Source: Candidatus Omnitrophota bacterium
GTDB lineage: Bacteria > Omnitrophota > Gorgyraeia > Duberdicusellales > 4484-171
NCBI GenBank assembly: GCA_003154195.1
Contig: PMCS01000008.1
Span: forward strand, 143,366-207,365
Direction of reading: 5' to 3'
Length of the DNA stretch: 64,000 nt
The notes beneath the pieces are model-generated. The model worked only from the letters and a program-made list of their open reading frames with translations. It was not told where the DNA came from and did not search any database. The position numbers and the translations under genes are program-made. Positions 17,101 to 41,218 of this stretch are shown here, in pieces. The number at the start of each line of letters is the position of its first letter. The first letter of the stretch is position 1.

Positions 17101-17230
17101 CGCAGATGATCACAGATTAAAAATCAACAGGTGATCGCTGACAGTTAACAAAAAATTACAAATATCAATACCTACTTTGGGATTTATGCTTTATCCGCGA
17201 TCATCAGCATCTTTTAATCAGCGATCATCC
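17101..17230. repeat. family B intergenic element (MITE-like, paired CAGATGATC iterons in ~45-bp terminal inverted repeats), copy 1
   Basis: cgcagatgatcacagattaaaaatcaacaggtgatcgctgacag ... atccgcgatcatcagcatcttttaatcagcgatcatcc; homologous to copies at 23811, 24501 and 41066. Confidence 0.7.
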
Positions 17231-17235
17231 AATAA

Positions 17236-18297
17236 TTAATTACCCCTCGGATACGAACCCAGGATTTTTACGAAAATACATTGTTTTCCCAACTCCTTTA
17301 AGGCTTTTTGAAAATCCGGCGAACTGCGATGGCCCTGGAAATCAACAAAAAAATAATACTCCCAGGGCTTTCTCCTAGACGGCCGCGATTCTATCTTGGT
17401 AAGGTTGATGCCGTATTTTTTAAACGAAAAAAGCACATCATGCAATGCCCCTACTTTATCTTTAACCGCGAAAAGAATCGATGTTTTATCATTCCCTGAA
17501 GGAAAACTGTCATTACGGGAAATTACTAAAAACCGCGTAATATTGGAAGATAGATCCTCTATCGAAGATGCGATAACTTTAAGCCCGTAGATATCGGCAA
17601 GAATCTTATTGCCGATACAGGCGCTGTCGCGTTTATCGCCCACAATCATTGCCGCTCTTGCCGTAGAACTAACCGGCACAAGTTCTGTCCCGGGATAATG
17701 TTGGACGAGCCACTTCCGGCACTGGGCTAATACTTGCGGGTTAGAATATATTCGTTTTATGCTCTTGCCCGATGGCTTAGCTAATAAAGTATGGGTTATA
17801 CCCAGTGTAGCTTCGGCGCAAATTTTCAAATCGGAAGCAAAAAACATATCCAGCGTATAGTTAACTGCTCCTTCCGTAGAATTTTCTATCGGCACCACGC
17901 CGTAATCGGCGCCGTCTTTATCAACCTCGTTGAATACATCGTCAATGCTTTCGCAGGCAATATACTCGCTGGAGCGGCCAAAATTTTTTATTGCCGCCAG
18001 ATGGGTATTCGTACCCTGGGGGCCGAAATAGGCGATACGCAGGACAGTCCTCAACGAACGGCAAGCGGAAAGTATTTCCCGAAAAATAACTTCCAGTTCA
18101 TCTGTACCCATAGGGCCGCGGCTCATCTTTTTTAAACGACTTAAAATATGGCTTTCCCGCTCCGCCGAATAAGCCGACATCTTGCTTTCTTTTTTCAGCT
18201 TGCTGATTCTGGTGGCTTCCTGCGCCCGCTTATTTAAAAGAGCAACCAGCGCCTCGTCGATCTTATCAATTTGTTTGCGTAATTCCGATAAATGCAT
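17236..18297 (-). CDS. pheA: bifunctional chorismate mutase/prephenate dehydratase
   Basis: 353 aa; N-terminal CM (LSELRKQIDKIDEALVALLNKRA), then a PDT domain and a C-terminal ACT domain. Confidence 0.8.
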   Translation of the reverse strand: MHLSELRKQIDKIDEALVALLNKRAQEATRISKLKKESKMSAYSAERESHILSRLKKMSRGPMGTDELEVIFREILSACRSLRTVLRIAYFGPQGTNTHLAAIKNFGRSSEYIACESIDDVFNEVDKDGADYGVVPIENSTEGAVNYTLDMFFASDLKICAEATLGITHTLLAKPSGKSIKRIYSNPQVLAQCRKWLVQHYPGTELVPVSSTARAAMIVGDKRDSACIGNKILADIYGLKVIASSIEDLSSNITRFLVISRNDSFPSGNDKTSILFAVKDKVGALHDVLFSFKKYGINLTKIESRPSRRKPWEYYFFVDFQGHRSSPDFQKALKELGKQCIFVKILGSYPRGN

Positions 18298-18409
18298 TTT
18301 TTCTCCTTATTAATGCTTGCATATCATTTCCAATTAAATATTTATTATTTAGCAATTACCATTTATTTTAAAATGATGATTGCCTCATGCTAAATTTAAA
18401 ATTACTATT

Positions 18410-19153
18410 TTATTTTTTTATTTTCTTGAACTCTTCCTCCGCCGACTTTAATGATTCATAACGGCCGATATCGAACCAGCTCCCTTTTAAGGGATAACCA
18501 TAAACTCTTGCTTCCTGAACCAGCCACTCGATATATTTACCGGACGCGTCGGAATGGCACCTTGCGGAGATGTATCTATTCAGCATCTCCAGAGAATCTT
18601 TAGGGAAAAAATAAACGCATGTCGCGATCAATCTTGACGGCGGATTTTCCGGTTTTTCCAAAAATATCGATATTTTCCTGGTTAAGTTCAGCTTGACCAC
18701 CCCGAAATTGGAGGCTAATTTTTTTTGCGCCAACTTGTACAACCCTATCGAAACATAGGGTTTCTTTTTACAGGCAAATCGCATAAATTTAATCAAAGCA
18801 TCATTAAATAAATTATCTCCTCCTAAAATAAGCCAATCACCAACATCTCTGCCGATAGCGAAATTTATGTCGCCGATTGCACCCAGCCGGTCTTCCGGGG
18901 AATTGGAACCGTCGTTAATAATATTTACGTCAAAATGATACTTTTTCTTCCATTCCAGAAAATTAGGATAAAATTTGTTATTCGAAACTACCCTGATTTC
19001 TTCAACGGGAAAATAATTGTTCAGGCATTTTATTTTTTCGATTAAAAAATTTATAATCGGGGTGGAACAAACGGGAATTAATGGCTTGGGGAGATTAACC
19101 GTCAAGGGGTACAATCTGGTACCGTAACCGGCCGCAAGAATCGCTACTCTCAT
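18410..19153 (-). CDS. sugar-phosphate nucleotidyltransferase (NTP_transferase family)
   Basis: 247 aa; MRVAILAAGYGTRLYPLTVNLPKPLIPV glycine-rich NTP-binding N-terminus. Confidence 0.65.
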   Translation of the reverse strand: MRVAILAAGYGTRLYPLTVNLPKPLIPVCSTPIINFLIEKIKCLNNYFPVEEIRVVSNNKFYPNFLEWKKKYHFDVNIINDGSNSPEDRLGAIGDINFAIGRDVGDWLILGGDNLFNDALIKFMRFACKKKPYVSIGLYKLAQKKLASNFGVVKLNLTRKISIFLEKPENPPSRLIATCVYFFPKDSLEMLNRYISARCHSDASGKYIEWLVQEARVYGYPLKGSWFDIGRYESLKSAEEEFKKIKK

Positions 19154-19214
19154 AGCTGGATAGCCCCAAAAGCATAAGTTAATCCATGAGCATTTTCCAT
19201 CATTTTTGCCGAAT

Positions 19215-20969
19215 TTACGCCATGCAAATCCTTTCGTAATCGTCTTTCAAAAAGCGCCTGAGTTCCTCCTGCAAAAACTTCTCTACCTCCCTGGACGTCG
19301 AAAAATCAACGGCCTTAAGGGCTAAGGCCTGGGTATCCTTGAAGTTCACGCTTCTTATCAGTTCTTTTATTTTGGGAATAAACGGCGGCGGCATACTGAA
19401 TTCATCCAAACCGAAACCTAAAAGTAAAAGAGCGAATAACGGCTCACCCGCCATCTCGCCGCACATACCTACCCATATATTATTCTTATGGGCATTTTCA
19501 ATGACGCTTTTTATCAGGCGCAATACTGCCGGATGCGCCGGATCGTACAAGTAGGCAACTTTTTCATTAGCCCGGTCCACGGCAAGCGAGTATTGAATCA
19601 AATCATTGGTACCGATACTAAAGAAATCGCTTTCCTTAGCTAAAACATCAGCAGTTAAGGCCGCCGAAGGAACTTCAATCATTATGCCTATGGATATTTT
19701 TTCATCGAAAGCCAACCCTTCTTTCTTGAGTTCCCTTTTACATTCTTCAATTAATTTCTTAGCTTCCCTGAGCTCTTCCACGCTGGAAATCATGGGAAAC
19801 ATTACCTTAACGTTGCCTTCGGCCGACGCTCTCAATATCGCGCGCAATTGAACCTTAAAAACTTCCGGCCGGGCAAGGCAAAACCTGATTGCGCGCCAGC
19901 CTAAAAATGGGCTCATCTCTACCGGAACCTGCGGCTGGGAAAGAAACTTATCCCCCCCTATATCAATGGTACGCAAAATCACCGAAGCGGGTTTAATTTT
20001 TTTGGCGACACTGAGATAAGCCTTATATTGCTCCTCTTCGCTGGGTAACTCTTTTTTTCCTAAAAATATATATTCCGTACGATAAAGGCCGATACCGTCG
20101 GCGCCGAACTCATGGGCCAACGCTAATTCTTCCGGTAATTCAATATTGGCGGAAACCACGATTTCCCTTTTATCGATTGTACGCGCCTTGGCCTTAGGTA
20201 TATGTATCGCTTCTTTTATAACGGCGATCTTGGCGGATTTTCTCTGATAATCTCTTAAAACTTTATCCGTGGGGCGGGCAATAACCGTTCCCTCTATCCC
20301 GTCAATAATCAACTTATCGTCGGGAGCGATATTCTGGGTAGCGATCTCTAAACCTACCACCGCCGGAATCCCTAAGCTTCTGGCGATAATTGCTGTATGA
20401 GACGTCCGGCCCCCGACGTCGGTAATAAAACCCAGGATATTTTCTTTGGGTAAAGTAGCAGTTTGCGAAGGAGAAAGGTCGTGAGCGACAATAATAACTT
20501 TTTCTTTCAAGTCCTGGATCTTTTTCTCTTCCTGTTTCAGGAATTTGCGCATGACGCGGCGCGCCACGTCTTCGATATCCACGACCCGTTCGCGCAGATA
20601 CTCATCGTTTATCTTAAGCAGGGTATCGATATATTTTTTTATGCTCTGGCTAAAGGCGAATTCCGCATTTACCTTTTTGTTTTTTATCTGCTGGATTATA
20701 TCTTCAATCAAAACCCGGTCTTCCAGAATCAAAAGGTGGGCTTCAAAAATCTTGGCGTGGTCGAACCCCAGGTCTTCGGAAATTTTTTTCTGCAGGGTAG
20801 AAATTTCCCGGCGCGTTTCTATCAACGCTTCTTCGAGGCGGTAAATTTCCCGCGAAACATCCTCATGGAAAATTTTTCTTTTGGGAATAGAAAGCTCTTC
20901 TTTCCCCAACAGGAAAGCCTTAGCAATCGCTATTCCGCCGCTGGCAACAACACCTTTTAATTTAATCAT
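19215..20969 (-). CDS. ptsI: phosphoenolpyruvate-protein phosphotransferase (PTS enzyme I)
   Basis: 584 aa; GGRTSHTAIIARSLGIPAVVG active-site His region and a PEP-utilising C-domain. Confidence 0.9.
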   Translation of the reverse strand: MIKLKGVVASGGIAIAKAFLLGKEELSIPKRKIFHEDVSREIYRLEEALIETRREISTLQKKISEDLGFDHAKIFEAHLLILEDRVLIEDIIQQIKNKKVNAEFAFSQSIKKYIDTLLKINDEYLRERVVDIEDVARRVMRKFLKQEEKKIQDLKEKVIIVAHDLSPSQTATLPKENILGFITDVGGRTSHTAIIARSLGIPAVVGLEIATQNIAPDDKLIIDGIEGTVIARPTDKVLRDYQRKSAKIAVIKEAIHIPKAKARTIDKREIVVSANIELPEELALAHEFGADGIGLYRTEYIFLGKKELPSEEEQYKAYLSVAKKIKPASVILRTIDIGGDKFLSQPQVPVEMSPFLGWRAIRFCLARPEVFKVQLRAILRASAEGNVKVMFPMISSVEELREAKKLIEECKRELKKEGLAFDEKISIGIMIEVPSAALTADVLAKESDFFSIGTNDLIQYSLAVDRANEKVAYLYDPAHPAVLRLIKSVIENAHKNNIWVGMCGEMAGEPLFALLLLGFGLDEFSMPPPFIPKIKELIRSVNFKDTQALALKAVDFSTSREVEKFLQEELRRFLKDDYERICMA

Positions 20970-22984: not shown

Positions 22985-23083
22985 ATTTTTTACTCCGTAA
23001 TAAAAGATTCCTTACCGCCGATATCATTACGGCGGAATAATTTGAAGGGTAATTTTTATTTTTTGCGAAACAAAAAATAAAAA

Positions 23084-23160
23084 TGGAGCGGGCGAAGGGA
23101 ATTGAACCCTCAACCTCCACGTTGGCAACGTGACGCTCTAGCCGGTTGAGCTACACCCGC
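23084..23160 (-). tRNA. tRNA-Gly (anticodon GCC)
   Basis: rc reads GCGGGTGTAGCTCAACCGGCTAGAGCGTCACGTTGCCAACGTGGAGGTTGAGGGTTCAATTCCCTTCGCCCGCTCCA. 7-bp acceptor, D-loop with GG, anticodon loop TTGCCAA, T-loop GGTTCAATTCC, CCA encoded. Confidence 0.8.
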
Positions 23161-23161
23161 G

Positions 23162-23207: not shown

Positions 23208-23327
23208 ATGACCAAAAAATGCGCTTCACTCATTTTTCGGATTAATAAATATTTACGAATTTTCTATTTCCATTTTGCATTGATCAATGAACATTAGACA
23301 ATGATCAATTTAAAATGATATAACACA

Positions 23328-23413: not shown

Positions 23414-23731
23414 AGTACTTTTATTTCAGCCATAAGCTCTCCCCTACCGCCATTACTTATCAAATAAACAAAGCATTGCGGGAACAACGAATTTAAAGCA
23501 TAAGTCGCGTTTCGCGCGACCGTTGTTGCCGCCATCCCGGCAGTACTTGAAAAAATGTTTTGCCGCTCAACACGAGATTTTATAACCAGGTAGCCGACAA
23601 TTCTCTCCCGCCACAATAATTTAAAGAACAAATGTATTTTTAACTATTTCCTTCTTCCTCTCTTTCTTTCTATTTTTTGGATGGCGTCAGGATTAATTTT
23701 CCCGGCTGTACCCGGTCGGGAAAATTAAAAG

Positions 23732-23804
23732 TGAGCCGCCCGAGGATCGAACTCGGCACAACCTGCTTAAAAGGCAGGTGCTCTACCAACTGAGCTAGCG
23801 GCCC
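23732..23804 (-). tRNA. tRNA-Lys (anticodon TTT)
   Basis: rc reads GGGCCGCTAGCTCAGTTGGTAGAGCACCTGCCTTTTAAGCAGGTTGTGCCGAGTTCGATCCTCGGGCGGCTCA; anticodon loop CTTTTAA, T-loop GTTCGATCC. Confidence 0.8.
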
Positions 23805-23810
23805 GATAAA

Positions 23811-23926
23811 ACGATGATCGCTGATTAGAAGATGCTGACGATCACTGATAAATACTATAAACGCCTATCCCGTATTAGTTATCAGCGGTCATCTGTTGAT
23901 TTTCAATCTGCGATCATCATCGTTTA
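23811..23926. repeat. family B intergenic element, copy 2 (inverted orientation relative to copy 1)
   Basis: acgatgatcgctgattagaagatgctgacgatcactgat ... atcagcggtcatctgttgattttcaatctgcgatcatcatcg. The arms are reverse complements of the copy-1 arms. The right end overlaps the frr stop codon. Confidence 0.7.
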
Positions 23927-24484: not shown

Positions 24485-24500
24485 GATTAACTCCTTGTAA

Positions 24501-24626
24501 CACAGATGATCGCCGATTAAAAATCAACTGATGATCACAGATAAAAAAATTAAATCCCAAATCGCAAATTTCTAAAACCTATCTGCGATCATCTGCATCT
24601 TCCAATCTGTGGTCATCTGCGTTTTT
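24501..24626. repeat. family B intergenic element, copy 3
   Basis: cacagatgatcgccgattaaaaatcaactgatgatcacagataaaa ... atctgcgatcatctgcatcttccaatctgtggtcatctgcg. Overlaps the pyrH stop. Confidence 0.7.
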
Positions 24627-25425
24627 AGCTGACTCTCGTCCCTATATCTTTCCCTAAGACGACTTTTTTTAAATTACCCTTTTCCAGAAAAGAAAAAACT
24701 AAAATCGGAAGTTTATTCTCCATACATAAAGTTACGGCCGTTGAATCCATAACCTTCAGTTCTTTATTTATTACATCCATATAGGACAATCTTTTAAAAA
24801 ATTTGGCGTCTTTATTCTGCAATGGATCCGCGGAATAGACCCCGTCGACTTTTGTCCCTTTTAATAAAATATCCGCGTCGACCTCTACACTTTTTAGAGC
24901 CGCAGCGGTATCGGTAGTAAAATAAGGGTTGCCGGTTCCCGCGACAAATACCACAACTCGTTTTTTTTCCAGATGACGGATGGCCCGCCTTCTTATATAC
25001 GGCTCGGCAATCTGGTGCATTTCGATAGCGGTTATAACTCTGGTAGGGATTCCCGCTTTCTCTAAAGCGTTTTGCAAAGCTAAACCGTTTATGACTGTAG
25101 CAAGCATACCCATGTAATCGGCAACGGTACGCTCCATCTCAAATTCTTTTGAACGAGCCGCGCCTCTAAAAATATTCCCACCGCCGATAACCAGGGCGAC
25201 CTCAACCCCCAAGTCGACGACTTCTTTTATTTCTTCGGCTAGATAGGCGAGTATTGCCGCGTCGATACCGTGAGAATGCTGGCCCAGCAACGCTTCCCCG
25301 CTTAACTTTAAAAGAATTCTTTTAAATTTCGCTTTCATTATTTTTTTGCTTCGCAAAAAATCTTCCCCGCTTCGCGGATGAAAAAAAGAAAGAATATCCT
25401 TAACCAGAAAAATACGTTTACTCAT
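24625..25425 (-). CDS. pyrH: uridylate kinase
   Basis: [12 protein letters not shown]...GGGNIFRG...[21 protein letters not shown]. The true start may be the internal Met at 25338 ([15 protein letters not shown]); no SD is seen at either candidate. Confidence 0.85.
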
Positions 25426-25510
25426 TTTTCCGGTTAATCCATTAACCGTACCATTATTTGTTCAAGGCTAATTTTATGGCTGTATTCAGCCGGAAAGATT
25501 AAAATATATA

Positions 25511-29782: not shown

Positions 29783-29792
29783 AAAAAATAAT

Positions 29793-31890: not shown

Positions 31891-31904
31891 GCCGCAAGAA
31901 TACC

Positions 31905-31998
31905 GTGTCCACAGATTGCTCAGATTTTACAGATTAACTTTTAATTCTATACTGCCTAATCCATATTTTCTGATAAATCAGCGAAATCTGTGGACAAG
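31905..31998. repeat. family C intergenic element (CAGATT arrays with TGTCCACAGATT / AATCTGTGGACA termini), copy 1
   Basis: gtgtccacagattgctcagattttacagatt ... tcagcgaaatctgtggacaagac followed by tttttgtttttaa. Lies between the convergent lpxB and giant-gene 3' ends. Confidence 0.65.
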
Positions 31999-32018
31999 AC
32001 TTTTTGTTTTTAAATATT

Positions 32019-35000
32019 TTACTTCCACGCTTTTGCCGCCAATTCATCTATAGTTTCTTTCGCCGAGACATCTTTCATAAACGTAATCACAAATTGCAAG
32101 CGGTTAAAATGCGGGTTGAGACGGCTATCGGCCAGAGCTGCGTCCATGCCGGGGCCGCTGGTTTGAAGATTAAAGCTCTTGCCGGTGACGTCGATACCGC
32201 CCAAGGGCGTTGAGCCGGTCCCCTCCGGGGAGGCTCCGCTTCGCTCCGCGCTTGAGCCCGTTGAAGAAAGCGGCGAGGCGGCGGATTGTCTTTCTGCTTT
32301 TCCCCCCAGAGGTGAAGCGGCGGCTCTTCTTTCTTCTTCCCTCACCCCCTCTCCTTTGACATCTAACAGGACAAACTTATCCGACATATCCATACTGTTA
32401 TATTTATCTGGACCGAACCCAATATCGGTAAATGTCTGCCAGCTATCCCTGTGCAACGGTACAACGCTGATAGTCTTACCTTGCTGGTAAACTGTCATTT
32501 TAGGAATAGTTATTTCATTAGAGAAATTAAACGACCCTCCAATTTCCGCCGGCAAAGCGATACCGATACAATCGAGTTTTCGCGCGGTAACAGATAGTCC
32601 CCTGAATACATTCATTAATAATTTTCCGCCGTCAAGAGAAGGAGAATTAAGCGTATCTATGGTCAGGACTCTTTCGCCTTTATCGGTCACGCCAACCATC
32701 AACCCGATATATCCTTTAAGTTCTTTTCCTTTATAAACAAAATAGTATTGCGTATCTTCATGCATTGTCCGGGTAAACGGAAATCCCTTATCCGTATCCA
32801 TAAAGAAAGAACAATCGATCATCCCGGCCCGGCCGCGGAAGGCCGCCAAAAATCCCTGGCCGACAAAACGATAGTTGGTATTTCCCGCACGCTGGACGGA
32901 TACTAACGCCGGCCGGGATAAATCTTCCAGCAACTTGCTCACCGCCTTAATCTTCTCCGCCTTTATCCCCAAAGAATCAGGTAAGTGCTTTTTGTAACCT
33001 TCGAAGTTTATAAGTGCGGCGGTGAGCCGCTCAATATCGGTTGAATCAAGATCACTGGCCAATGCTTCATCGGATAAAACATCGGCGACGATTAAATCTC
33101 GCATCAACCCAAAGCAGGCTGCTTCGATTACATTATCCCCGCGGTTGCCTCTGGCCAATTTTTCAGCCAAAAGAAATACAGTCTTATAAAATTCCTTCCG
33201 GTTATCCCTGAAATACTGTTCCATATCGTCTGTGGAAGGATATTCAATATGGAAGCGTCCACCGCCTAGCAGCCTTCCTTCGGTAACAGCTTTACGACGC
33301 TGCATCTCATAATAGATCCCTTTAACACTGGAAAATTTATGCCCCGGGCCGAATACTTTTGCGATCAGGCTCAAATCGTCTATGCCTTTTTTTATCTCCC
33401 TTAACTGCCGGGCATGTTCATCGATCACCACGGAATTGACGGAAGTGGCGTCAAGCACAGTAACCCCTTCTTCGCTTACCTCAAAACCAGGCAGCGCCCG
33501 TTTCTTAGCAAACATCTTCTGCCAACTGCCGGGATACTTGGCGTCGTATTCCTTAAATTTAGCCAAGCGCTCTTTTAATTCGTCAAGGGTCATATTGATG
33601 CCCGCGACTCTTATCCCGGCATAAGCATACCAAACCGACGCCTCGTCGTCGTAGTTGAAACCGGCGTCATCGTCAACCGCCGCCGCGGCATCACGCATAA
33701 TTTCCTCTAAGGCAGCGCGGGAATCTTCTTCGGTTAAATACCACTCCACGACTTTTGGCTCATATGGTAAATTGCTCTTGCTCCACAATTTATATTTTTT
33801 ATAATCCTCACCAGCGTTCATCCCTTGTCGGGCCAGCTCATCGCTATAGACTAAGACTAAAGCTTGGGCTGCAGCCTGGACTACATCATGATTTCCATTA
33901 ACAACGCTCCTTAAGGCATCACGGGTGGCTTCTTTTTCCTGCTGGTCCATCCCGGCGTAAGCCAAACCCAAGGCTTTGGCCGCGGCCAGGCATACCGCCC
34001 AATCTTCGGCGGCGGCGGTAAGTCGGCTTCTTAATTCATCCAGCGACATATTATTCTGCCGAAACATCGCGGCATAAATCAAGCCTAACGCGTTGGCTCC
34101 AACTCGACACAAATCAAGCTCCGCATAGGTAAGCGTGCTTTTTAAAGCCTCGGCTATCCCCTTTGCTATACCCGGTTGTCGGACCAGTTCGCTGCCGACC
34201 AGGCCTAAAGCCTGGGCCGCGGCCTTGATTACGTCCCAATTCGGGTCATTAAGTTTGCTTTTAAAAATTTCTACTATCTCCGGAGAGACTTCTTCTCCCT
34301 GTCGGGCTAATACGGTATAGATCAAGCCTAAAGCTTCGACTACGGCCAAGCGCACCCACCCATCTTCGTCGCTGAGCTTACTTTTAAAAGCCTCTACTAT
34401 CTCCGGGGGGACTTTTTTTGCATGCCGCGCCAATTCACTGCAGACGGTGCCTAATATTTGGGCCGCGACACGCGACATACCAGAATCCTGATCGGTGAGT
34501 TTCTCCCTAAAGTAACCTATTTCCCGGAGCAGAAAAGCTTCTTCTTCCGGTTGTCCAGCCATTTCAGTATAGAATATACCTAAAGCTTTGACCGCGGCCT
34601 GGCTTACGGGATCAAACCTGTCAGTAAGCTGAATTTTTAAAGCCTCTACTATCTCCGGGGGAACTTTTTCTGCCCTTCGTGCCAGCGCGGCACAGGCCAT
34701 GCCTAAAGCTCCAACCATAGCCTGGCGTACAACCCAATTTCTTTCGACATCAAGTGCGTCTTTTAATTCAGTTAAGTCTGCTCTTTTTCCATTTCGGGCT
34801 AACGCGGTGTAGATTGCGCCTAAAACTTGGGCTGCGTCTCGGCGTATGCTATAATTCGAATCGCTCAAATCGCTAAGCTTGCTTTTTATCTCTGAGGCCA
34901 GGAAGGCTTCTCTCCCCGGTTGTCCAGCCAGTTCGGTGTAGACCAAGCATAAAGCATCAATCAAAGCCAGGCGCATGTCCGCATTCATTTCACCAACAAG

Positions 35001-38000
35001 CAGGCCTTTAAAAGCCTCTATCTCTCGGAAGATTTCTTTTCCCTTTCGCGCCATCTCAGTATAGACCAAACCTAAAGCTTTAATCGCATTTTGGCGTGTT
35101 TTAGGAGACTCAACGGAGCTGTAAACGGAGGTGTATTTACGTTGTAAATCAGTTAAGTCGACTTCTTTTCCCTGTCGGACCATCTCACTGTAAATCAGCC
35201 CCAAAGATTCAATCGCGGCCTGGCGTACGTTATCATCCCAATCGTTAAGTCTGTTTTTTAAAAGAGTTAAGTTGACTTCTTCTCCCCTACGAATCAGTTC
35301 GCTGTAGAATAAACCTAAAGCTTGAGCCGCGGCCTTGCGTATATACCAATTCTTGTCGTGAAGATCGCCTTCTATGGACAGCATGGATCGAACCGCTCGC
35401 TGGGAAAGAGTCAGGGGTTTATCGCTCTTAGGCAGAGTAAAAGTCCGGACCGGCGAAGCGGCGGATGAACTCTCTGCTTTTTTTCCGAGGGGCGCGACAT
35501 CCCTGGCGACCGCACATCTACCATGTGTTATATCATGGCCGTTGAACCGGTTAACATCTCTTAAATCGACACGGGGTTGGTTGGAGAACATCCTTTTATA
35601 AAAATCGAGAATATCGGGATTGTTGCTTCCCAATCCCGGATCTGACTCATCTCTCATGGGAACGAGTACTTTTGTCGCGCCGAGGGAACGGGCGATTTTC
35701 TCTTCGTAATCCAAAACCTGCCTCATCAAATCTTCGGTGACAATGCTTTCCGTAACTTCCTTGCGCGGGCTGAAGCCACGGTCGATAAGGACAGGCTCGT
35801 TGGTCCCGGCAATGGCATTACCAATAATAAGAAGAGTACCGCCTAAAAGGTCGTTAGTATCGGCATCGACAAGCACCAAGGCCACCATGTTATCGTTGTC
35901 TTCCATGGTATGATTTGTGCGCGTCCAACATTCGTCACTAAAATAGCCGATAAATTCGGCAAGCCAGCCCCTGGTGGGAACGATTTTTATCCTCCGGGTA
36001 AAACCGCCTGCCTTTATGCGTTCGCTCTCGTCTCTTAAGGCCTTGGCATCGATCGGCTTAAACAGGGCCCGGGCTCTTTGTTGATCATTGGAAATACCTT
36101 CCGAAGGAAAACCATCGACGAGTTCAATTAATTTAGAGATAGTCTCATGGGTCAACTCCTTGCCGCGACGGCCTCTAAAATATTCCAACAACTTTGACAA
36201 GCCGGTGTTATGATAAAAAGCGTAGGTAAGTAGTAACCTCCTGACCACCGGCCTAGTCGTTTTAACAGAGTTTATCGTTGTTATTGTCTCGATGGTTAAA
36301 TTCAATAAAGGAAATTGCCCCTTGGGCGCGGCTTCAAGCTCTGACCTGGCTGATCTTAACAATCTCAGTTTTCTTTCTACATCCGCTATCTTTCTCGCCT
36401 CCGTAGCTTCACTAGGCGTATGCGATAACTTCTCGACTTCCTTATCAATCAGAGAGAATAAATCCAGAATCGTAGCGTCATAGGGCGATTTATCTTCTCC
36501 CGCCACGGCGATAGCATCAATCGCGCCTTCAACCGCCTCAACCATTCCTTTACCATAGCTTGCCGCGTCAGCCCCAAGGCCCTGTTGTTTACCGGTAGAG
36601 ACTACGATTGATTCTTCCAACAAGGGGAAACCTTTTGGTAAAGCGGCCATATCTTTATCTTCTTCCTTCTTTTTTTTCTCGTAAGCCTTTTTATAATAAC
36701 CATAAATCGCGTCAAACGGTTCAACCCCATCCTCTCCCCTATGCAGGCTGGTATCGTAATGGACGATATGACGCAATAAAGCATTGACTTCGGGGTCGGA
36801 AATATTTAAATCACCCGGCAAGACAGCGTCAAAGAGATGGCCGAAAATTTTACGGTGTAGCTCACCTTTAATGAATACGCTGTTTTGTCCGCTCGGCTCT
36901 GTCCTTGGCTCTACTGCCGGCGAGGCGACAACTCTTTCTTTTCGTCCCGCGTCCGAGTGACCGGAGGGAACGGACGTCCTACGTCCTACGGATAGCTTTG
37001 CGTTTTGCCCTGTTGCCGGCGACCCGGCTCGCCCCGAAACAATAACCTCACTGCTGATTACTTTTACACCATGGCCTTCACAGATATCGGCTATCGTAAA
37101 CCTGGGAGGAAGGTTTGGCCTAACTTCCAGATTAAAAGCCTTTGGGGTAAAAATTGTTCCGCCCGAAGTATACCGACGCCGCACCGGATGCTTGGTAGCG
37201 CTATCCTGCTCCCGCTTGATACAGTTATAGACACCTCCCTTGTAAGCCTGGACATAAAGGTTAAAGATTTTATCTTTTACGTTCTTGTCGTTTAAATCAA
37301 TCCCGGCGATCTTACTCTGGTCGATGTAGTATTTATAGAAGGTATTTTGGAATTTCTTGCGGAACCAGACGGCTAAGATAAGGGAGTGGTAGATTTGGCG
37401 AAGGGTCGCAAAGCTCTTTCCCTGGTTGACTTCTTGGTTGACTTGAGGCAGAATTACTTCTTTGAATACATTTGAAGCGATCTCATCAGCTTTTTCTTTT
37501 TCATCCTTCATCCTTCGTCCTTCATCCTTCGATTGACCGCGCTGCGCCGCAGTGTAATCGCGCTCATGCATCGTCTTCAGGCTGGCTTCCAGGACAAACG
37601 CCGTATCCCCTTTCTCATAAACCACGCTCTTCTGGGGCATGACCCAGACTTTGTTGTAGGTGTTGATAGAACCGTTGATCCCGTTGAGCCGGTTTTGCCG
37701 GTTGAGCCCGTTAGAATTGGTTTTTGCGATAACCTCATTCCAATACCTTTTTCCCAATTCTGTTTCCGGATAAGTCAAAGAAGAAACGAGTTGCTTCAGG
37801 CAATAATCCTGCCCTAACAGGTCTTTACCGAGATCGGTCAGGGCTAAATTGTCTGAAGCGACTCGTTCCCCTTCATAAGGTGACAGGTTGACCCATAACT
37901 CTTCCTGGGGAAGAGTTAACCCTGCCAGAAAATACTTGATAAGACGATTAGCTTCTTCTTTGGTGACATCTTCTTTATTGGCGGTATCGACTAAGAATTC

Positions 38001-38306
38001 TATGTTGAGAGGGTTTTTAGGATTAAAACGTAAACCTTTAAGCACGGGATAAGAGAACTTTTCCGAAAGGTTGAGGAGTTTGGTCGGGGCTGGAAGGTTG
38101 TAGATCGCACCGGTAGGCTGGGGAGCCGGGGATACGGAAACGGCTTCCGCCATGATTTCCGGCGCGAATGAAGAAAAAAATATCGCGCCGGAAAGAAATA
38201 CAGCGGTGCACCTGAACAGAATAGTACTTCTGCGTATTGGGATTAGCTGGGTCATAACTAATCCAGAAAATACGTCCGGTAAAACGTATTTTCTGCTCCT
38301 TAGCAA
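32019..38306 (-). CDS. giant (2095 aa) exported or membrane-anchored protein with central HEAT/PBS-lyase-like repeat array and Ser/Ala-rich linkers
   Basis: Single uninterrupted ORF in the track. Hydrophobic N-terminal segment AVFLSGAIFFSSFAPEIMA. About 12 or more tandem repeats of the form D..VR.AA..ALG.(I/V)Y(S/T)E(L/M)AR.G..(V)...L. Low-complexity linkers GKKAESSSAASPV and GGKAERQSAASPLSSTGSSAERSGASPEGTGS. No recognisable catalytic motif. Confidence 0.7.
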   Translation of the reverse strand: MLRSRKYVLPDVFSGLVMTQLIPIRRSTILFRCTAVFLSGAIFFSSFAPEIMAEAVSVSPAPQPTGAIYNLPAPTKLLNLSEKFSYPVLKGLRFNPKNPLNIEFLVDTANKEDVTKEEANRLIKYFLAGLTLPQEELWVNLSPYEGERVASDNLALTDLGKDLLGQDYCLKQLVSSLTYPETELGKRYWNEVIAKTNSNGLNRQNRLNGINGSINTYNKVWVMPQKSVVYEKGDTAFVLEASLKTMHERDYTAAQRGQSKDEGRRMKDEKEKADEIASNVFKEVILPQVNQEVNQGKSFATLRQIYHSLILAVWFRKKFQNTFYKYYIDQSKIAGIDLNDKNVKDKIFNLYVQAYKGGVYNCIKREQDSATKHPVRRRYTSGGTIFTPKAFNLEVRPNLPPRFTIADICEGHGVKVISSEVIVSGRAGSPATGQNAKLSVGRRTSVPSGHSDAGRKERVVASPAVEPRTEPSGQNSVFIKGELHRKIFGHLFDAVLPGDLNISDPEVNALLRHIVHYDTSLHRGEDGVEPFDAIYGYYKKAYEKKKKEEDKDMAALPKGFPLLEESIVVSTGKQQGLGADAASYGKGMVEAVEGAIDAIAVAGEDKSPYDATILDLFSLIDKEVEKLSHTPSEATEARKIADVERKLRLLRSARSELEAAPKGQFPLLNLTIETITTINSVKTTRPVVRRLLLTYAFYHNTGLSKLLEYFRGRRGKELTHETISKLIELVDGFPSEGISNDQQRARALFKPIDAKALRDESERIKAGGFTRRIKIVPTRGWLAEFIGYFSDECWTRTNHTMEDNDNMVALVLVDADTNDLLGGTLLIIGNAIAGTNEPVLIDRGFSPRKEVTESIVTEDLMRQVLDYEEKIARSLGATKVLVPMRDESDPGLGSNNPDILDFYKRMFSNQPRVDLRDVNRFNGHDITHGRCAVARDVAPLGKKAESSSAASPVRTFTLPKSDKPLTLSQRAVRSMLSIEGDLHDKNWYIRKAAAQALGLFYSELIRRGEEVNLTLLKNRLNDWDDNVRQAAIESLGLIYSEMVRQGKEVDLTDLQRKYTSVYSSVESPKTRQNAIKALGLVYTEMARKGKEIFREIEAFKGLLVGEMNADMRLALIDALCLVYTELAGQPGREAFLASEIKSKLSDLSDSNYSIRRDAAQVLGAIYTALARNGKRADLTELKDALDVERNWVVRQAMVGALGMACAALARRAEKVPPEIVEALKIQLTDRFDPVSQAAVKALGIFYTEMAGQPEEEAFLLREIGYFREKLTDQDSGMSRVAAQILGTVCSELARHAKKVPPEIVEAFKSKLSDEDGWVRLAVVEALGLIYTVLARQGEEVSPEIVEIFKSKLNDPNWDVIKAAAQALGLVGSELVRQPGIAKGIAEALKSTLTYAELDLCRVGANALGLIYAAMFRQNNMSLDELRSRLTAAAEDWAVCLAAAKALGLAYAGMDQQEKEATRDALRSVVNGNHDVVQAAAQALVLVYSDELARQGMNAGEDYKKYKLWSKSNLPYEPKVVEWYLTEEDSRAALEEIMRDAAAAVDDDAGFNYDDEASVWYAYAGIRVAGINMTLDELKERLAKFKEYDAKYPGSWQKMFAKKRALPGFEVSEEGVTVLDATSVNSVVIDEHARQLREIKKGIDDLSLIAKVFGPGHKFSSVKGIYYEMQRRKAVTEGRLLGGGRFHIEYPSTDDMEQYFRDNRKEFYKTVFLLAEKLARGNRGDNVIEAACFGLMRDLIVADVLSDEALASDLDSTDIERLTAALINFEGYKKHLPDSLGIKAEKIKAVSKLLEDLSRPALVSVQRAGNTNYRFVGQGFLAAFRGRAGMIDCSFFMDTDKGFPFTRTMHEDTQYYFVYKGKELKGYIGLMVGVTDKGERVLTIDTLNSPSLDGGKLLMNVFRGLSVTARKLDCIGIALPAEIGGSFNFSNEITIPKMTVYQQGKTISVVPLHRDSWQTFTDIGFGPDKYNSMDMSDKFVLLDVKGEGVREEERRAAASPLGGKAERQSAASPLSSTGSSAERSGASPEGTGSTPLGGIDVTGKSFNLQTSGPGMDAALADSRLNPHFNRLQFVITFMKDVSAKETIDELAAKAWK

Positions 38307-38456: not shown

Positions 38457-38487
38457 CTATATCTTGCTCGCGGAAAAAAACTATAAA

Positions 38488-38643: not shown

Positions 38644-38668
38644 AATTATCTTGTTATCTACATATATT

Positions 38669-39115
38669 TCATACCGCGACTTTCACCACTACCTTACGCA
38701 CCGCGCCATTACCGGCGAGCGGGGCGTGAGCATCTTCGGGAAAAAATATGACGAATCTACCGGACGTAAGGGCGAACCAGGCCTGCGGCGTATCTTTTAA
38801 TATGCCGAAATCTTTTTTCTTATTATATTTCTGGTCCACGCTGAAGCAATCCGCCAACGACAACCAACCGATAACATCCACGCCGCTTACGCAGTATTGG
38901 ATATCGATGAATTTACGGTGAAATTCTAATTTAGAATCATCCTTCCCTCTTCCATTCGAAACCGCAACCGTGGCAAAAAGTTTTTTCCCGTTTAATTCAT
39001 ATTTGCCGTCTTTTAACTCGCGGGGGTTACTTTTACATAAAAAGGCAAACGCTTCCTTGAAGGCAGGATGCAAGGCGTAATAAATTTTAGCGTTTTCTAA
39101 GGTATCAATGATCAT
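38669..39115 (-). CDS. YhcH/YjgK/YiaL (DUF386, EbgC-like) family protein
   Basis: 148 aa; FHRKFIDIQYC...FFPEDAHAP...VRKVVVKV parallels the EbgC/YhcH beta-sandwich family motifs. Confidence 0.55.
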   Translation of the reverse strand: MIIDTLENAKIYYALHPAFKEAFAFLCKSNPRELKDGKYELNGKKLFATVAVSNGRGKDDSKLEFHRKFIDIQYCVSGVDVIGWLSLADCFSVDQKYNKKKDFGILKDTPQAWFALTSGRFVIFFPEDAHAPLAGNGAVRKVVVKVAV

Positions 39116-39129
39116 AGCCTATCCTTCAC

Positions 39130-39327
39130 TCATTGCGTTAACTCTCTTATTTTCTCCTCAATCATCTTAACATGTTTTTCCTCTTCGTTGATTAAGGAAC
39201 CTAACAAATCGCCAATGGAAGAATGTTCGAGCGCCAATCTTCGATATAATTTAACCGACGCTTTTTCCTTACTTAAAGCCAATTCCAATGCTTCCAGGGG
39301 TATCATAACGCCTCCTTTTAGAAACAA
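39130..39327 (-). CDS. small (65 aa) ferritin/rubrerythrin-like helical protein
   Basis: ALELALSKEKASVKLYRRLALEH...EEEKHVKMIEEKI: E...H / E..H spacing reminiscent of half a diiron four-helix bundle. Weak call. Confidence 0.3.
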   Translation of the reverse strand: MFLKGGVMIPLEALELALSKEKASVKLYRRLALEHSSIGDLLGSLINEEEKHVKMIEEKIRELTQ

Positions 39328-39362
39328 AAACTTTGGTCCACAGATATTTTTTTATTTATGGC

Positions 39363-40376
39363 TTATCCCTGAATGCTTGCCATATGTTCACACCCGGACG
39401 AACGAAACTCGCCGATAAAACCGTCCATTTCTTGTTTAGTCTTGGCCAGAAACGCCCGCATCCGCAACGGCCTTACCCGGGAAAACCCCTTGGTATACCA
39501 GCCGAAGAATTTGCGAAAATGCAAAACCCCCCGCGCTTCGCCGTAAAGTTCGACATTCATTCCCAAATGCCGTTCCATAATCCCGGCGACAACTTCCAGC
39601 GCCGGCCGTTCTGGTAGAATCCCGGTTCGGCAAAATTCTTCGATTTCCTTAAAAATCCAGGGATTACCCGTGGCGCCGCGCGCCACCATCACCACGTCAC
39701 AGCCGGTCTCATCGAACATCCTTTTGGTTAACCGGCCGCTTAGTATATCCCCGCTGGCGATCACCGGGATTGTTAAAGATTTTTTAACTTTCGCGATAAT
39801 ATCATAATCGACCGCGCCGCTATATCCCTGTTTTCGCGTCCGGCCATGGACCGAAACCGCAGCCACGCCGCAATCCTGGGCCAGCTTGGCTATCTCTACC
39901 GCGTTTATCGAGGAACTATCCCAGCCGGCGCGAATCTTAACGGTTACCGGAACGGTTGAACGGGCAACCATAGAAGTAAGCAATTCCTTTAATTTATCAG
40001 GTTGGCGCATCAACCCTGAACCCGCACCGGATCGGATAACTTTCTTTACCGGGCAAGCAGCGTTTAAATCAAGAATATCAAATTTATAACCGGCCAGACA
40101 GTCAATCGCGCGCGCGATAATATCCGGCTCGTGGGTAAGCAGTTGTATCCCTAACGGCTGGTCAGCCGCGCAAGACTTAAGGATTATCTGCGCTTCGTTA
40201 CTCTTATAGCAAAGCGACCGGCCGCTGATCATCTCAGTAAACGCGAATGCGCATCCGGCCTCCCGGCTGACCAGCCGGAACGGCAGGTCGCTCACTCCCG
40301 ATAAAGGAGCAAGGATGTAAGGTTTTTCTAAGGTGAATTTTCCTATTTTAACCATATAAAAACTTTTTTTGTCCAC
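39363..40376 (-). CDS. dusB: tRNA-dihydrouridine synthase
   Basis: 337 aa; LAPLSGVSDLPFRLVSREAGCAFAFTEMISG, NAACP, HGRTRKQ, GNPWIF, the canonical Dus motifs. Confidence 0.85.
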   Translation of the reverse strand: MDKKSFYMVKIGKFTLEKPYILAPLSGVSDLPFRLVSREAGCAFAFTEMISGRSLCYKSNEAQIILKSCAADQPLGIQLLTHEPDIIARAIDCLAGYKFDILDLNAACPVKKVIRSGAGSGLMRQPDKLKELLTSMVARSTVPVTVKIRAGWDSSSINAVEIAKLAQDCGVAAVSVHGRTRKQGYSGAVDYDIIAKVKKSLTIPVIASGDILSGRLTKRMFDETGCDVVMVARGATGNPWIFKEIEEFCRTGILPERPALEVVAGIMERHLGMNVELYGEARGVLHFRKFFGWYTKGFSRVRPLRMRAFLAKTKQEMDGFIGEFRSSGCEHMASIQG

Positions 40377-40499
40377 AGATTGCTCAGATTAGAAAATATG
40401 GAATCAAGCTCGAAACAAAATAGAATATCGGTATTTTCGCAATCTATTAGTTTATATTTTTCCCACAAAATCTGTGAAAATCTGCGTAATCTGTGGACC
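40361..40499. repeat. family C intergenic element, copy 2
   Basis: ataaaaactttttttgtccacagattgctcagattag ... atctgtgaaaatctgcgtaatctgtggacc. Confidence 0.65.
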
Positions 40500-40520
40500 G
40501 ATTATTCTTTGGTTAAAATT

Positions 40521-41048
40521 TTATTTCCAAAAAGTATGCCCTTCCAAAAATAAAAAACTCAACGCACAGATTGTCTTAGCATCGATAATTTCCCCGCTTC
40601 GCAACATCTGTGCTATATCTTCGCGGTCGAAAATCTCCTCGCTAATTACTTCGTCGGCCATCGCTTTTTTAGTTACTTTCGCCAGCCGCGTCGCTTTATA
40701 AATGATTATCCGCTCGGTGGAATAACCCGGCACCGGCACAATTTCCTGGATTTTTTCTAACTTCCCCGCCTTATAGCCGGTTTCCTCGATAATCTCCCGT
40801 CTGGCGCAATCAACGGGCTTCTCGCCTTTTTCCAAAGTGCCGGCGGGAAATTCCCAGATATACTTATTAATCGCGGCGCGGAACTGGCGGATCAATAAAA
40901 TCCTGCCATCGTCAAAAATCGGGACAATCAAAACCGCGCCGGGGTGCTTGATGATTTCCACCTTAACGTCAAAACCGTTAGGCAGGGTCATTTCCTTGAC
41001 AAATACCTTAAGTAATTTACCGTTATAGACTTGTTTTTCTTTTTTCAT
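40521..41048 (-). CDS. NUDIX hydrolase (ADP-ribose pyrophosphatase-like)
   Basis: 175 aa; Nudix box GTLEKGEKPVDCARREIIEETG. Confidence 0.8.
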   Translation of the reverse strand: MKKEKQVYNGKLLKVFVKEMTLPNGFDVKVEIIKHPGAVLIVPIFDDGRILLIRQFRAAINKYIWEFPAGTLEKGEKPVDCARREIIEETGYKAGKLEKIQEIVPVPGYSTERIIIYKATRLAKVTKKAMADEVISEEIFDREDIAQMLRSGEIIDAKTICALSFLFLEGHTFWK

Positions 41049-41065
41049 TTGAGCTCCTTACGATA

Positions 41066-41218
41066 CGCAGATGATCGCCGATTGAAAATCAACAGATGAT
41101 CACAGATAAAACTATTGAATGCCAAAATTTTCCATCTTTGACTCAATCGTATATCTCTCTTCGGTATTTTTATCAACGATCATCAGCATCTTCTAATCAG
41201 TGATCATCTGCGTTTAAT
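41066..41218. repeat. family B intergenic element, copy 4
   Basis: cgcagatgatcgccgattgaaaatcaacagatgatcacagataaaa ... caacgatcatcagcatcttctaatcagtgatcatctgcgttt. Overlaps the mnmG stop. Confidence 0.7.

Follow-up and report, generated by a model that had tools for sequence, protein, structure and literature searches.

Four intergenic inverted-repeat elements of an Omnitrophota genome have arms matching those of GxxExxY nuclease cassettes

The window analysed here, a stretch of 64,000 nt of a Candidatus Omnitrophota genome, carries four intergenic hairpin elements, E1-E4, whose arms are homologous to those of cassettes built around a GxxExxY gene; this is the principal new result. Because such arms bracket a GxxExxY gene in the cases examined, we read E1-E4 as ORF-less shells of that cassette. 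They are probably miniature, gene-less, MITE-like copies of a small selfish unit, with the link to the cassette drawn from arm homology alone.

Layout of the four elements

Each element measures about 115-150 bp and consists of a core between two inverted arms of about 42-46 nt, each arm with two (C)AGATGATCRC motifs. E1 (17100-17234, minus strand) is a hairpin without an ORF in the pheA–hisC gap (core 17143-17191, 49 nt); E3 (24500-24622, minus strand) lies between pyrH and the Shine-Dalgarno/start region of frr (core 24544-24579, 36 nt), and E4 (41065-41213, minus strand) between mnmG and a Nudix hydrolase gene (core 41109-41170, 62 nt). E2 (23808-23923, plus strand; core 23851-23879, 29 nt) sits in the opposite orientation in the frr–tRNA-Lys gap. 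Motif and arm searches confirmed all four copies where an earlier note had placed them, along with its description of inverted arms near 45 bp with two motifs each, occurring in both orientations. Its motif spacing of about 21 nt and its core of 40-80 nt were replaced by measured values of 24-25 nt (start to start, with 13-14 nt between motifs) and 29-62 nt.

The two arms of an element differ in period and spacer (GATTRRAAGATGC with the 24-nt period, GATTRAAAATCAAC with the 25-nt period); they are therefore non-equivalent and give each element a polarity, which is the same in E1, E3 and E4 and reversed in E2. The 25-nt-period arms lie on the plus strand at 17101-17142 in E1 (half-sites 17105-17113 and 17130-17138), 24501-24543 in E3 (24505-24513 and 24530-24538) and 41066-41108 in E4 (41070-41078 and 41095-41103), and on the minus strand at 23880-23919 in E2 (23885-23893 and 23910-23918). 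Their 24-nt-period counterparts occupy the minus strand at 17192-17229 in E1 (spacer GATTAAAAGATGC; half-sites 17197-17205 and 17221-17229), 24580-24621 in E3 (24585-24593 and 24609-24617) and 41171-41212 in E4 (41176-41184 and 41200-41208), and the plus strand at 23813-23850 in E2 (23813-23821 and 23837-23845). Allowing at most one mismatch, CAGATGATCRC has 12 matches in the window against 0.9 expected, 11 of them inside E1-E4, and the core RATGATCRC is found in all 16 half-sites, four per element. The arm pattern GATGAYCRCNGATTRRAAN{4,5}CWGRYGAYCR matched all eight arms, with no further match in the window and 0 expected, and an arm HMM search of the window found no fifth copy.

All four elements fall within operon-like co-directional gene pairs. 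E1, E2 and E3 begin 0-5 nt past the stop codons of pheA (17236-17238), frr (23924-23926) and pyrH (24625-24627), respectively. At their other ends, E1, E3 and E4 stop 11-16 nt before the start codons of hisC (17088), frr (24484) and the Nudix gene (41048), and E2 stops 4 nt before the adjoining tRNA-Lys (23731-23804). From its outer half-site, which contains the mnmG stop codon TGA, E4 provides the final two amino-acid codons of that gene together with its stop (CGC AGA TGA, R R *; 41204-41212, minus strand). The described abutment or overlap with the stops of frr, pyrH and mnmG holds.

Insertion and dispersal

E1-E4 are insertions, since sister species have the same gene order with short gaps and without the elements. 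The order rpsB-tsf-pyrH-frr-tRNA-Lys-tRNA-Leu-tRNA-Gly-ptsN is kept in relatives whose Frr is 78-82% identical; in sister Omnitrophota the pyrH–frr gap measures 9-14 nt, compared with 140 nt here (E3), and the frr–tRNA-Lys gap 3-7 nt, compared with about 120 nt (E2). At the E4 junction, one relative (L073) has its next gene 3 nt after mnmG and no element, and another (L072) carries a related element at exactly this junction after mnmG. Within the species studied, the four copies are identical and fixed in all of the at least 23 contigs compared, which come from different samples, a comparison that gave no sign of current activity.

Further copies exist beyond the window: 37 contig stretches, nearly all from Candidatus Omnitrophota MAGs, carry the arm pattern, and a single MAG has as many as 14 loci. 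At least 10 other Omnitrophota MAGs have arms of the E1-E4 type, found at unrelated loci and facing either way. Among 32 full elements that were reconstructed, all in intergenic gaps of unrelated loci, 13 have the same orientation as their co-directional neighbour genes and 10 the opposite one. Several core types recur, each at different loci within one genome, and a composite element with a nested palindrome is present at non-orthologous loci in L009/L015 and L072.

The absence from sister junctions and the dispersal uphold part of the initial reading as non-autonomous MITEs; the part that finds no support is a classical IS-derived origin, the one gene found between such arms being a nuclease and not a transposase. 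It is very unlikely that a conventional transposase elsewhere in the genome, such as an IS630-like DDE or a RAYT/IS200-type Y1 enzyme, moves the elements in trans as classical MITEs or REPINs, with GxxExxY as a frequent passenger. Their size, terminal inverted repeats, A/T-rich intergenic targets, two orientations and clustering or nesting are typical of MITEs (PMC10969869), and a mechanism of the RAYT or IS200/IS605 type would be consistent with the missing target duplication. However, neither a target-site duplication nor a defined target sequence is visible at the elements, leaving the classical IS-derived reading unsupported. In agreement with the earlier note, the 28 window ORFs scanned include no transposase, and none lies between or beside the arms at the inspected loci, where the enclosed gene is GxxExxY in six of six and has its reading frame built into the arms.

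REPIN-RAYT systems resemble the present elements in their hairpin doublets of inverted units, intergenic location and lack of target duplication. A RAYT gene is bracketed by inverted units, an anatomy of a gene between arms that is common to RAYT loci and the GxxExxY cassette. The enclosed protein is nevertheless a PD-(D/E)XK nuclease here and a HUH/Y1 transposase there; the GxxExxY gene is multi-copy, with its start and stop codons inside the arms, and the arms are without a REP GT[A/G]G head, neither of them being a palindrome by itself.

The GxxExxY cassette

At all six loci examined, the arms bracket a gene of about 125 aa belonging to the GxxExxY family (TIGR04256/PF13366, PD-(D/E)XK nuclease); this, and not a transposase, was the sole enclosed gene found. 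An HMM built from only the eight window arms matches both flanks of all six independent loci, which come from Omnitrophota and Nitrospirota (E 2e-3 to 3e-10 in 51 kb). The succession of arm, ORF and arm is found with an intact ORF in L002 (1688-2112) and with a frameshifted one in L014 (932-1384), and the ORF matches NCBIfam TIGR04256 at E = 2e-31 and Pfam PF13366 at E = 9e-32.

The arms contain the boundaries of the gene. The inner 5' half-site, CAG-ATG-ATC-RCA-GAT, provides the start codon, with proteins beginning MIAD or MITD; a purine-rich spacer in the 5' arm (GATTAGAAGA or AGAGGA) occupies the Shine-Dalgarno position; AAT-CTG-TGA-TCATC in the 3' arm provides the stop codon; and the 24-nt motif period equals eight codons. 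Among the 120 closest homologues, 105 start with M-x-[A/T]-[D/E] and 21 have at least two motifs of this type, 17 of the 22 spacings being eight residues (24 nt). C-termini such as TGNL, ICDHL and DDHRYL are likewise translated arm sequence.

With the start codon inside the inner 5' motif and a period of eight codons, the initial interpretation of the 11-mers as iterons was rejected. More broadly, it is barely credible that the elements are a DNA-level binding array for a host protein, whether as iterons, nucleoid-protein sites or part of a Dam/GATC-related function. Each element does hold four ordered, well-conserved half-sites, and the elements are enriched about 11-fold in GATC, a sequence that the window as a whole avoids (observed/expected 0.53). 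Yet GATC is not the conserved feature, because the outer 3' half-site in other species is usually CTAATCTGTG, which lacks it; the surroundings include neither a rep gene nor an origin; positions vary between species; and the motifs fall where the GxxExxY gene starts and stops. The host protein-binding architecture proposed earlier is also unlikely as a fixed feature because the elements are missing from orthologous sites in relatives.

With P69-D70...E80-x-K82 invariant and a predicted model (pLDDT 90) of PD-(D/E)XK fold, the nuclease looks active. The Omnitrophota and Nitrospirota copies are 72-92% identical to one another, a conservation across phyla that suggests horizontal spread; an intact copy at the same locus in two Nitrospirota, 81% conserved against 79% and 67% for its neighbours, would also fit a domesticated host gene. 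Distant GxxExxY genes are bracketed by inverted repeats as well, one of 28 nt made of CACAGAGA units in cultured Bernardetia and one of 16 nt in Treponema.

The 64-kb window contains no intact GxxExxY gene with E1-E4 arms, and no ORF remnant is statistically detectable in the E1-E4 cores. A second arm family (GTCCACAGATT...CAGATT) forms an element of the same class at 56152-56407 (minus strand), enclosing an internally deleted GxxExxY gene (56189-56353, minus strand; residues about 9-28 joined to about 109-126) recovered by a six-frame search of the whole window (hmmsearch E = 0.003). Two second-family hairpins without an ORF lie on the minus strand at 40363-40509, immediately downstream of the Nudix gene, and at 31892-32014, between lpxB and a 2095-aa ORF. 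The 56152-56407 element appears to be part of a decay series in this window.

The same features can be arranged in the reverse order, in an account that we consider unlikely: ORF-less palindromes would be the primary dispersed repeat, and GxxExxY a homing-type endonuclease that cuts empty palindrome centres, its gene being copied into them during repair that uses the ~45-bp arms as homology. E1-E4 would then be unoccupied landing pads, not decayed cassettes. Such an account would accommodate arms that are the same in kind with or without an enclosed ORF, the far greater number of ORF-less copies (in 265 kb, 3 of more than 45 elements have an ORF), the nesting of other palindromes in element cores and the lack of an ORF remnant in those of E1-E4. 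But it leaves unexplained how empty palindromes spread to new sites, and damaged genes between arms do exist (the internally deleted one at 56189-56353 and the frameshifted one in L014). The gene start, Shine-Dalgarno-like spacer and stop, moreover, all lie in the arms, in frame and with the eight-codon period, which points to joint evolution of the arms with their gene as a single unit. Free-standing homing endonuclease genes, including that of the PD-(D/E)XK enzyme I-Ssp6803I, are comparable to the cassette in being small, often decayed nuclease genes between conserved genes. To our knowledge, each of them has a single cognate site and lacks both long inverted arms and scattered miniature derivatives, whereas the arms described here accompany the gene to many sites that are unrelated.

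Folding of the elements and comparison with known repeats

As RNA, E1-E4 are predicted to form hairpins of -39 to -52 kcal/mol (z = -4.5 to -7.1 against shuffled sequences), among them the minus-strand fold of E1 (-41.1 kcal/mol, z = -4.5) and that of E3 (-47.4 kcal/mol, z = -7.1). No T-run, terminator-like site or promoter was found at E1-E4, which rules out a terminator function and with it the terminator-associated alternative raised at the outset. It is highly improbable that the hairpins are host-selected, recruited and kept to process or stabilise mRNA between cistrons or to uncouple translation. All four do lie in operon-like co-directional pairs and would be transcribed, the folds are strong (z down to -7), in E1, E3 and E4 the mRNA-sense fold is more stable than the antisense one by about 10 kcal/mol, and RNase III or RNase E is known to cleave Correia and ERIC elements (PMC10969869). 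Against this, the arms do not covary, the two arms of an element being 80.2% complementary and randomly matched arms of different elements 80.5%; 13 elements run with transcription and 10 against it, E2 being antisense; the same junctions are empty in sister species; and there is no U-tract.

Of known repeats, the Correia/NEMIS MITEs of Neisseria are similar in being intergenic, about 100-200 bp long, multicopy, bounded by terminal inverted repeats and present in both orientations, as well as co-transcribed with their neighbours as long hairpins. Correia elements have inverted repeats of about 26 bp, a TA target duplication and an IHF site; the elements here have arms of 42-46 nt with two internal direct repeats each, no visible duplication and a full-length relative encoding a PD-(D/E)XK nuclease. 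Correia hairpin RNAs are cleaved by RNase III (PMC10969869). ERIC/IRU and RPE repeats, too, lie at gene ends as imperfect palindromes about 100-150 bp long, and some add codons or stops to host genes as E4 does for mnmG; we know of no protein-coding full-length form of these. The intervening sequences of 23S rRNA (Coxiella, Leptospira), which are excised by RNase III, share with the cassette the character of a small selfish insert in a transcribed essential locus, with a long inverted-end stem and one small ORF. They code for a four-helix-bundle S23p protein and interrupt a helix of the rRNA, as opposed to GxxExxY in the intercistronic spacers of operon mRNAs. The Coxiella sequence is a 428-nt element with an S23p ORF (PMC4990558).

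Returning to the cassette model, the full-length form is about 450-500 bp long and comprises a 5' arm, the ~125-aa GxxExxY gene and a 3' arm repeating the 5' arm as its inverted complement, with two CAGATGATCRC half-sites 24-25 nt apart in each. Cassettes and shells would enter A/T-rich spacers, typically the gap between an operon stop codon and the next ribosome-binding site, leaving no recognisable target duplication. The enclosed gene would decay or be deleted to yield two arms and a short core, and ORF-less forms would also multiply on their own. The GxxExxY nuclease may recognise the paired half-sites and drive movement or copying, a proposal to which we give somewhat less than an even chance; counting against it, PD-(D/E)XK nucleases this small are not known to act as transposases. 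The four shells would be co-transcribed with pheA-hisC, pyrH-frr-tRNA-Lys and mnmG-Nudix, their RNA folding into long imperfect hairpins without a U-tail. An effect of these hairpins at the RNA level, of whatever kind, is rather doubtful; the shells are probably passive structured spacers and possibly sites for RNase III or barriers to exonucleases. For GxxExxY, a large family without an assigned function, the cassette would offer a plausible role as a selfish mobile element.

Four inverted-arm elements between co-directional genes

The four hairpin elements claimed by the earlier note are all present in the window, E1 at 17100-17234 (minus strand), E2 at 23808-23923 (plus), E3 at 24500-24622 (minus) and E4 at 41065-41213 (minus). 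Each is 116-149 bp long and consists of two inverted arms of ~42-46 nt, ~80% complementary to each other, around a core of 29-62 nt. The motif CAGATGATCRC, with at most one mismatch, occurs 12 times in the window as compared with 0.9 expected, and 11 of these matches are inside E1-E4; its shorter core, RATGATCRC, accounts for 16 half-sites, four per element. The two half-sites of an arm lie 24 or 25 nt apart, and not ~21 nt as had been noted before. The arm pattern GATGAYCRCNGATTRRAAN{4,5}CWGRYGAYCR matched all eight arms and no other site in the 64 kb (0 expected by chance), and an arm HMM found no fifth copy in the window. Arms start with CRCAGATG and contain internal direct repeats, with no internal palindromes. 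The spacer is consistently GATTRRAAGATGC in one arm of an element and GATTRAAAATCAAC in the other, and each element therefore has a polarity, which is alike in E1, E3 and E4 and opposite in E2. A core motif next to one arm is common to E3 and E4 (TTTGGGATTTAAT / TTTTGGCATTCAAT); with the arm types as reference, a similar motif in the E1 core at 17143-17191 (CTTTGGGATTTATG) lies on the opposite strand, and this core looks as if it were inverted between its arms. GATC is under-represented in the window as a whole (150 observed vs ~285 expected, ratio 0.53; the ratio for CTAG is 0.36), with 14 of the 150 sites falling in the 523 nt of E1-E4, and a restriction or repair system specific for GATC might underlie its genome-wide avoidance.

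The genes on either side of the elements are all encoded on the minus strand, in the orders pheA-E1-hisC, pyrH-E3-frr-E2-tRNA-Lys and mnmG-E4-Nudix hydrolase. An element starts 0-5 nt past the upstream stop codon and runs up to the Shine-Dalgarno sequence that precedes the following gene (AAGGAG for frr and the Nudix gene), or ends 4 nt before tRNA-Lys, so that the intergenic gap is almost wholly filled; the final codons of mnmG, CGC-AGA-TGA, lie within E4. The best relatives by Frr and by MnmG, like nearly all matches to the arm pattern, are named Candidatus Omnitrophota. At least 23 metagenome contigs of the same species carry identical E2 and E3 (100% identical in 10 loci), which makes strain comparison uninformative, and the spacing in a strain with 99% Frr identity is the same as in the window. 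Relatives with Frr 78-82% identical keep the order rpsB-tsf-pyrH-frr-tRNA-Lys-tRNA-Leu-tRNA-Gly-ptsN, with a pyrH-frr gap of only 9-14 nt and, in three of them, an frr-tRNA-Lys gap of only 3-7 nt; in L073, a stretch from another relative, mnmG is separated from the next gene by 3 nt. E1-E4 are lineage-specific insertions of a dispersed family. A related element is found at exactly the insertion point of E4, at the junction of TTTATTAAA with CGCAGAT, in a further species (stretch L072, MnmG 70% identical), and MnmG ends in FIKRR* in both L072 and the window; either both species share an old insertion, or the point is a preferred target.

Upstream of E3, pyrH was called as a 266-aa gene (24625-25425), compared with 237-240 aa in relatives, and its TIGR02075 match begins at residue 35. 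The true start codon is probably ~30 codons downstream of the called one, which would leave a tsf-pyrH gap of 110-200 nt in the window vs 0-40 nt in relatives. A 36-nt repeat in this region (25403-25438) occurs again at 23211-23246, and this may be another insertion.

Arms as the termini of a GxxExxY gene cassette

Arms of this kind also enclose a gene. In L014, a stretch from another genome, the core that they surround, of 400 nt, is a GxxExxY gene with a frameshift, and in a second such stretch, L002, they enclose an intact one, the protein of the arm-bracketed ORF matching TIGR04256 (E = 2e-31) and PF13366 PDDEXK_3 (E = 9e-32). The loci of four further close homologues all lie between co-directional housekeeping genes (neighbours include acpP-fabZ-like, radical-SAM-hemE and glycosyltransferase-deacetylase pairs), and each is flanked on either side by CACAGATKA-type arms. 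When an HMM was trained on the eight window arms alone, it matched both flanks at 6/6 independent GxxExxY loci from Omnitrophota and Nitrospirota (E ~2e-3 to 3e-10 in 51 kb).

The reading frame itself is anchored in the arms. Its start codon is the ATG within the inner half-site (CAG-ATG-ATC-GCA-GAT, encoding M-I-A-D), a purine-rich spacer (AGAAGA / AGAGGA) occupies the position expected for a Shine-Dalgarno sequence, and the stop codon is inside the 3' arm (AAT-CTG-TGA). By independent gene calls, 105 of the 120 closest homologues start with M-x-[A/T]-[D/E], 21 of the 120 carry two or more motifs of this type, with 17 of the 22 spacings between them being 8 residues (24 nt), and many C-termini are translated arm sequence (...TGNL, ICDHL, DDHRYL). 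Since the start and stop of the ORF are built from arm motifs, the 11-mers that the earlier note had taken for iterons are instead the conserved termini of a cassette, composed of a 5' arm, a ~125-aa nuclease gene and a 3' arm. Replication-origin iterons were also rejected on the arrangement of the elements, which lie at four separate housekeeping loci and are organised as inverted, not direct, repeats. The arms of all four elements are homologous to those flanking GxxExxY genes, that is, to the termini of a nuclease-gene cassette, and these arms carry the translation signals of the gene.

In the protein, P69-D70 and E80-x-K82 are invariant and form the PD-(D/E)XK signature. The AlphaFold model is confident (pLDDT 90), and a structure search with it returned weak, generic PD-(D/E)XK matches (Cas4 SSO0001, lambda exonuclease, EcoRV and Hjc) and hence no mechanistic lead; a sequence search found no solved relative, PHROGs gave no match and PADLOC a weak Cas4 match only. 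Copies from Omnitrophota and Nitrospirota are 72-92% identical, far above what is usual for housekeeping proteins across phyla, and the sequences point to horizontal spread of GxxExxY copies between phyla. PDDEXK_3 has been listed as of unknown function, with "multiple transfers" between divisions (PMC3424549). Two Nitrospirota share an intact copy at the same locus that is 81% identical, the neighbouring genes being 79% and 67% identical, and such intact, equally conserved copies indicate that some are under purifying selection. Inverted repeats, of CACAGAGA and CACACGGATTCG units, likewise enclose distantly related members of the family in cultured Bernardetia and Treponema, and the arm sequence thus changes with the protein subfamily. 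On a Bernardetia plasmid, a GxxExxY gene lies between the copies of a 28-nt inverted repeat made of CACAGAG units (L070, 1451-1478 and 1874-1901), and the window holds two solo arms of this unit (CACCACAGAGCGCACAGAGAACACAGAGAGAA) at 43195-43235 and 59692-59732, mutually inverted and 16 kb apart. We found no report of Omnitrophota repeats or of arms around GxxExxY genes in the literature, our coverage of which was incomplete.

Gene-less shells and their dispersal

A second arm family (GTCCACAGATT...CAGATT), probably the "family A" of the earlier note, occurs in the window at 31892-32014, 40363-40509 and 56152-56407. The third element contains a GxxExxY gene (56189-56353) that has lost an internal segment, so that residues ~9-28 are joined to ~109-126; a six-frame search covering the entire window detected it at E = 0.003. 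E4 and a family-A element lie on opposite sides of the Nudix gene. Together with the frameshifted copy in L014, the deleted copy shows a path from cassette to gene-less shell. The reverse course, homing of the nuclease gene into empty palindromes, we consider unlikely. In the cores of E1-E4, a protein HMM and a DNA HMM of the ORF 3' end gave no significant match to an ORF remnant, so the assignment of these elements to the cassette rests on arm homology; the in-frame reading of E4 (MIVD...ENFGIQ*) is only suggestive and was not relied on, and apparent N-terminal remnants in the cores of two elements from other genomes (L029 and L035) fell below significance. The window also contains, at 32019-38306, a 2095-aa ORF that contains numerous internal repeats of ~120-125 nt or multiples thereof (families D1-D7).

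In a collection with one genome per species, the arm pattern was found in 37 stretches, almost all from Omnitrophota and with up to 14 loci per MAG; viral contigs gave no arm match. The 32 full elements that we reconstructed lie at unrelated loci, each in a short gap between genes that are mostly co-directional; relative to such co-directional genes, 13 have the same and 10 the opposite orientation. Several core types were each found again at different loci within one genome, indicating that the ORF-less forms multiply as such. Tandem arrays of elements occur in L055, a further stretch, where five loop-less hairpin elements precede a GxxExxY cassette and one more follows it (640-1722; also in L057 and L058), and elements thus accumulate beside each other. 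A composite element, in which a second palindrome, built of ACAAATCACAA-type units, is nested between CACAGAT arms, is present at non-orthologous loci of different species (L009 191-420, L015 4351-4580, L072 ~3297-3510). Three copies in the MAG JBBIOC01 (L012 7462-7640, L027 5936-6110, L034 640-800) have identical flanks beyond the arms, over ~30 nt on the left and ~25 nt on the right, and may belong to a larger repeat unit.

RNA structure, kinship with known repeats and a candidate mechanism

As RNA, the elements are predicted to form extended, imperfect hairpins (-39 to -52 kcal/mol, z = -4.5 to -7.1). No terminator-like site was detected at any of E1-E4, and the sequence after the hairpins is GTTACAAGGAG or similar, without a U-run; the one weak promoter-like match, in E4, was not above chance, and the only known RNA families in the window were three tRNAs (Rfam 15, gathering score). 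An RNA stem maintained by covariation was also rejected, because an element's own arms are 80.2% complementary vs 80.5% for shuffled partners, with 1387/2000 shuffles reaching the observed value. The R position of GATCRC is variable, most often with a G in the 5' arm facing an A in the reverse-complemented 3' arm, and each arm thus follows its own consensus; the arms are conserved as sequences and not as pairing partners. An excess of G:U-compatible differences (90 vs 59) was unconvincing as a strand-specific RNA signal, because the strand had been picked by HMM score and the copies share descent. The shells in the window are probably passive structured spacers in polycistronic RNA, and the predicted hairpins possibly have a role in RNA processing or stability. 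Two other kinds of palindrome occur in the window: a long hairpin just upstream of lepA (13124-13247), whose 56-nt arms are 75% complementary around a loop of 12 nt and which, made up of GGGATATT / GGGAATT-like units, belongs to a separate sequence family, and A/T-rich perfect-stem palindromes of 33-35 nt (ATTTTTATTTTTTGCGAAACAAAAAATAAAAAT) at 7562-7596, 8151-8183 and 23050-23084, one of them directly after tRNA-Gly, which look like bidirectional terminator hairpins.

MITEs are described as non-coding elements of <500 bp with terminal inverted repeats of typically 4-30 bp and flanking direct repeats (PMC10969869). E1-E4, whose 42-46-nt arms exceed that typical range, are short, contain no ORF matching any family, and belong to a set of dispersed A/T-rich intergenic copies present or absent between relatives, in which they behave like the bacterial MITEs Correia and ERIC. 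The MITE-like reading thus holds for size, inverted repeats, copy number and intergenic location, and fails on target duplication and on a transposase parent. The flanks of ~30 elements inspected, which are A/T-rich and extend the palindrome by only 2-4 nt, contained no target-site duplication, a feature that old copies can lose. No transposase was seen in the window, as had been noted before, and GxxExxY was the only gene found between such ends in the loci inspected. That a conventional transposase elsewhere in the genome moves the elements would fit the MITE-like features, and we regard it as quite improbable. The arms also lack the GT[A/G]G head and the palindromic unit of REP/REPIN sequences, and no RAYT was seen in the DNA inspected; REPIN-RAYT is the closest system in its anatomy of a gene between inverted units, although the enzyme there has a different fold. 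A similar stem-plus-small-ORF design is found in 23S rRNA intervening sequences with an ORF (PMC4990558).

We tentatively favor a mechanism, conceivable though short of probable, in which the nuclease would recognise the paired half-sites, two per arm and four per element, and would promote movement or copying of both cassettes and shells. GxxExxY genes with inverted CACAGAT-type arms could then represent a previously unrecognised class of selfish mobile element, a proposal about which we remain more doubtful than confident: a ~125-aa PD-(D/E)XK nuclease recognising its own arms would mobilise or copy itself and its ORF-less hairpin forms, without a conventional transposase or target duplication, in several phyla (Omnitrophota, Nitrospirota and probably Bacteroidota and Spirochaetota).

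Short palindromic intergenic repeats are common in bacteria, and for most families the partner gene is not known. The repeat of E1-E4 leads directly to its partner, a large protein family listed as of unknown function (PMC3424549), and the question of what GxxExxY proteins are for becomes testable, by asking whether they bind and cut their own arms. The finding explains the odd N- and C-terminal extensions of these proteins (MIADEKTQMITD..., ...ICDHL), altered host gene ends such as the RR* of mnmG, which is supplied by the element, and the 100-150-bp "gaps" in the tightly packed operons of Omnitrophota. If the nuclease moves the element, it would be a new type among DNA-moving enzymes, and the proposed element class, if true, would explain the function of the whole TIGR04256/PF13366 family.
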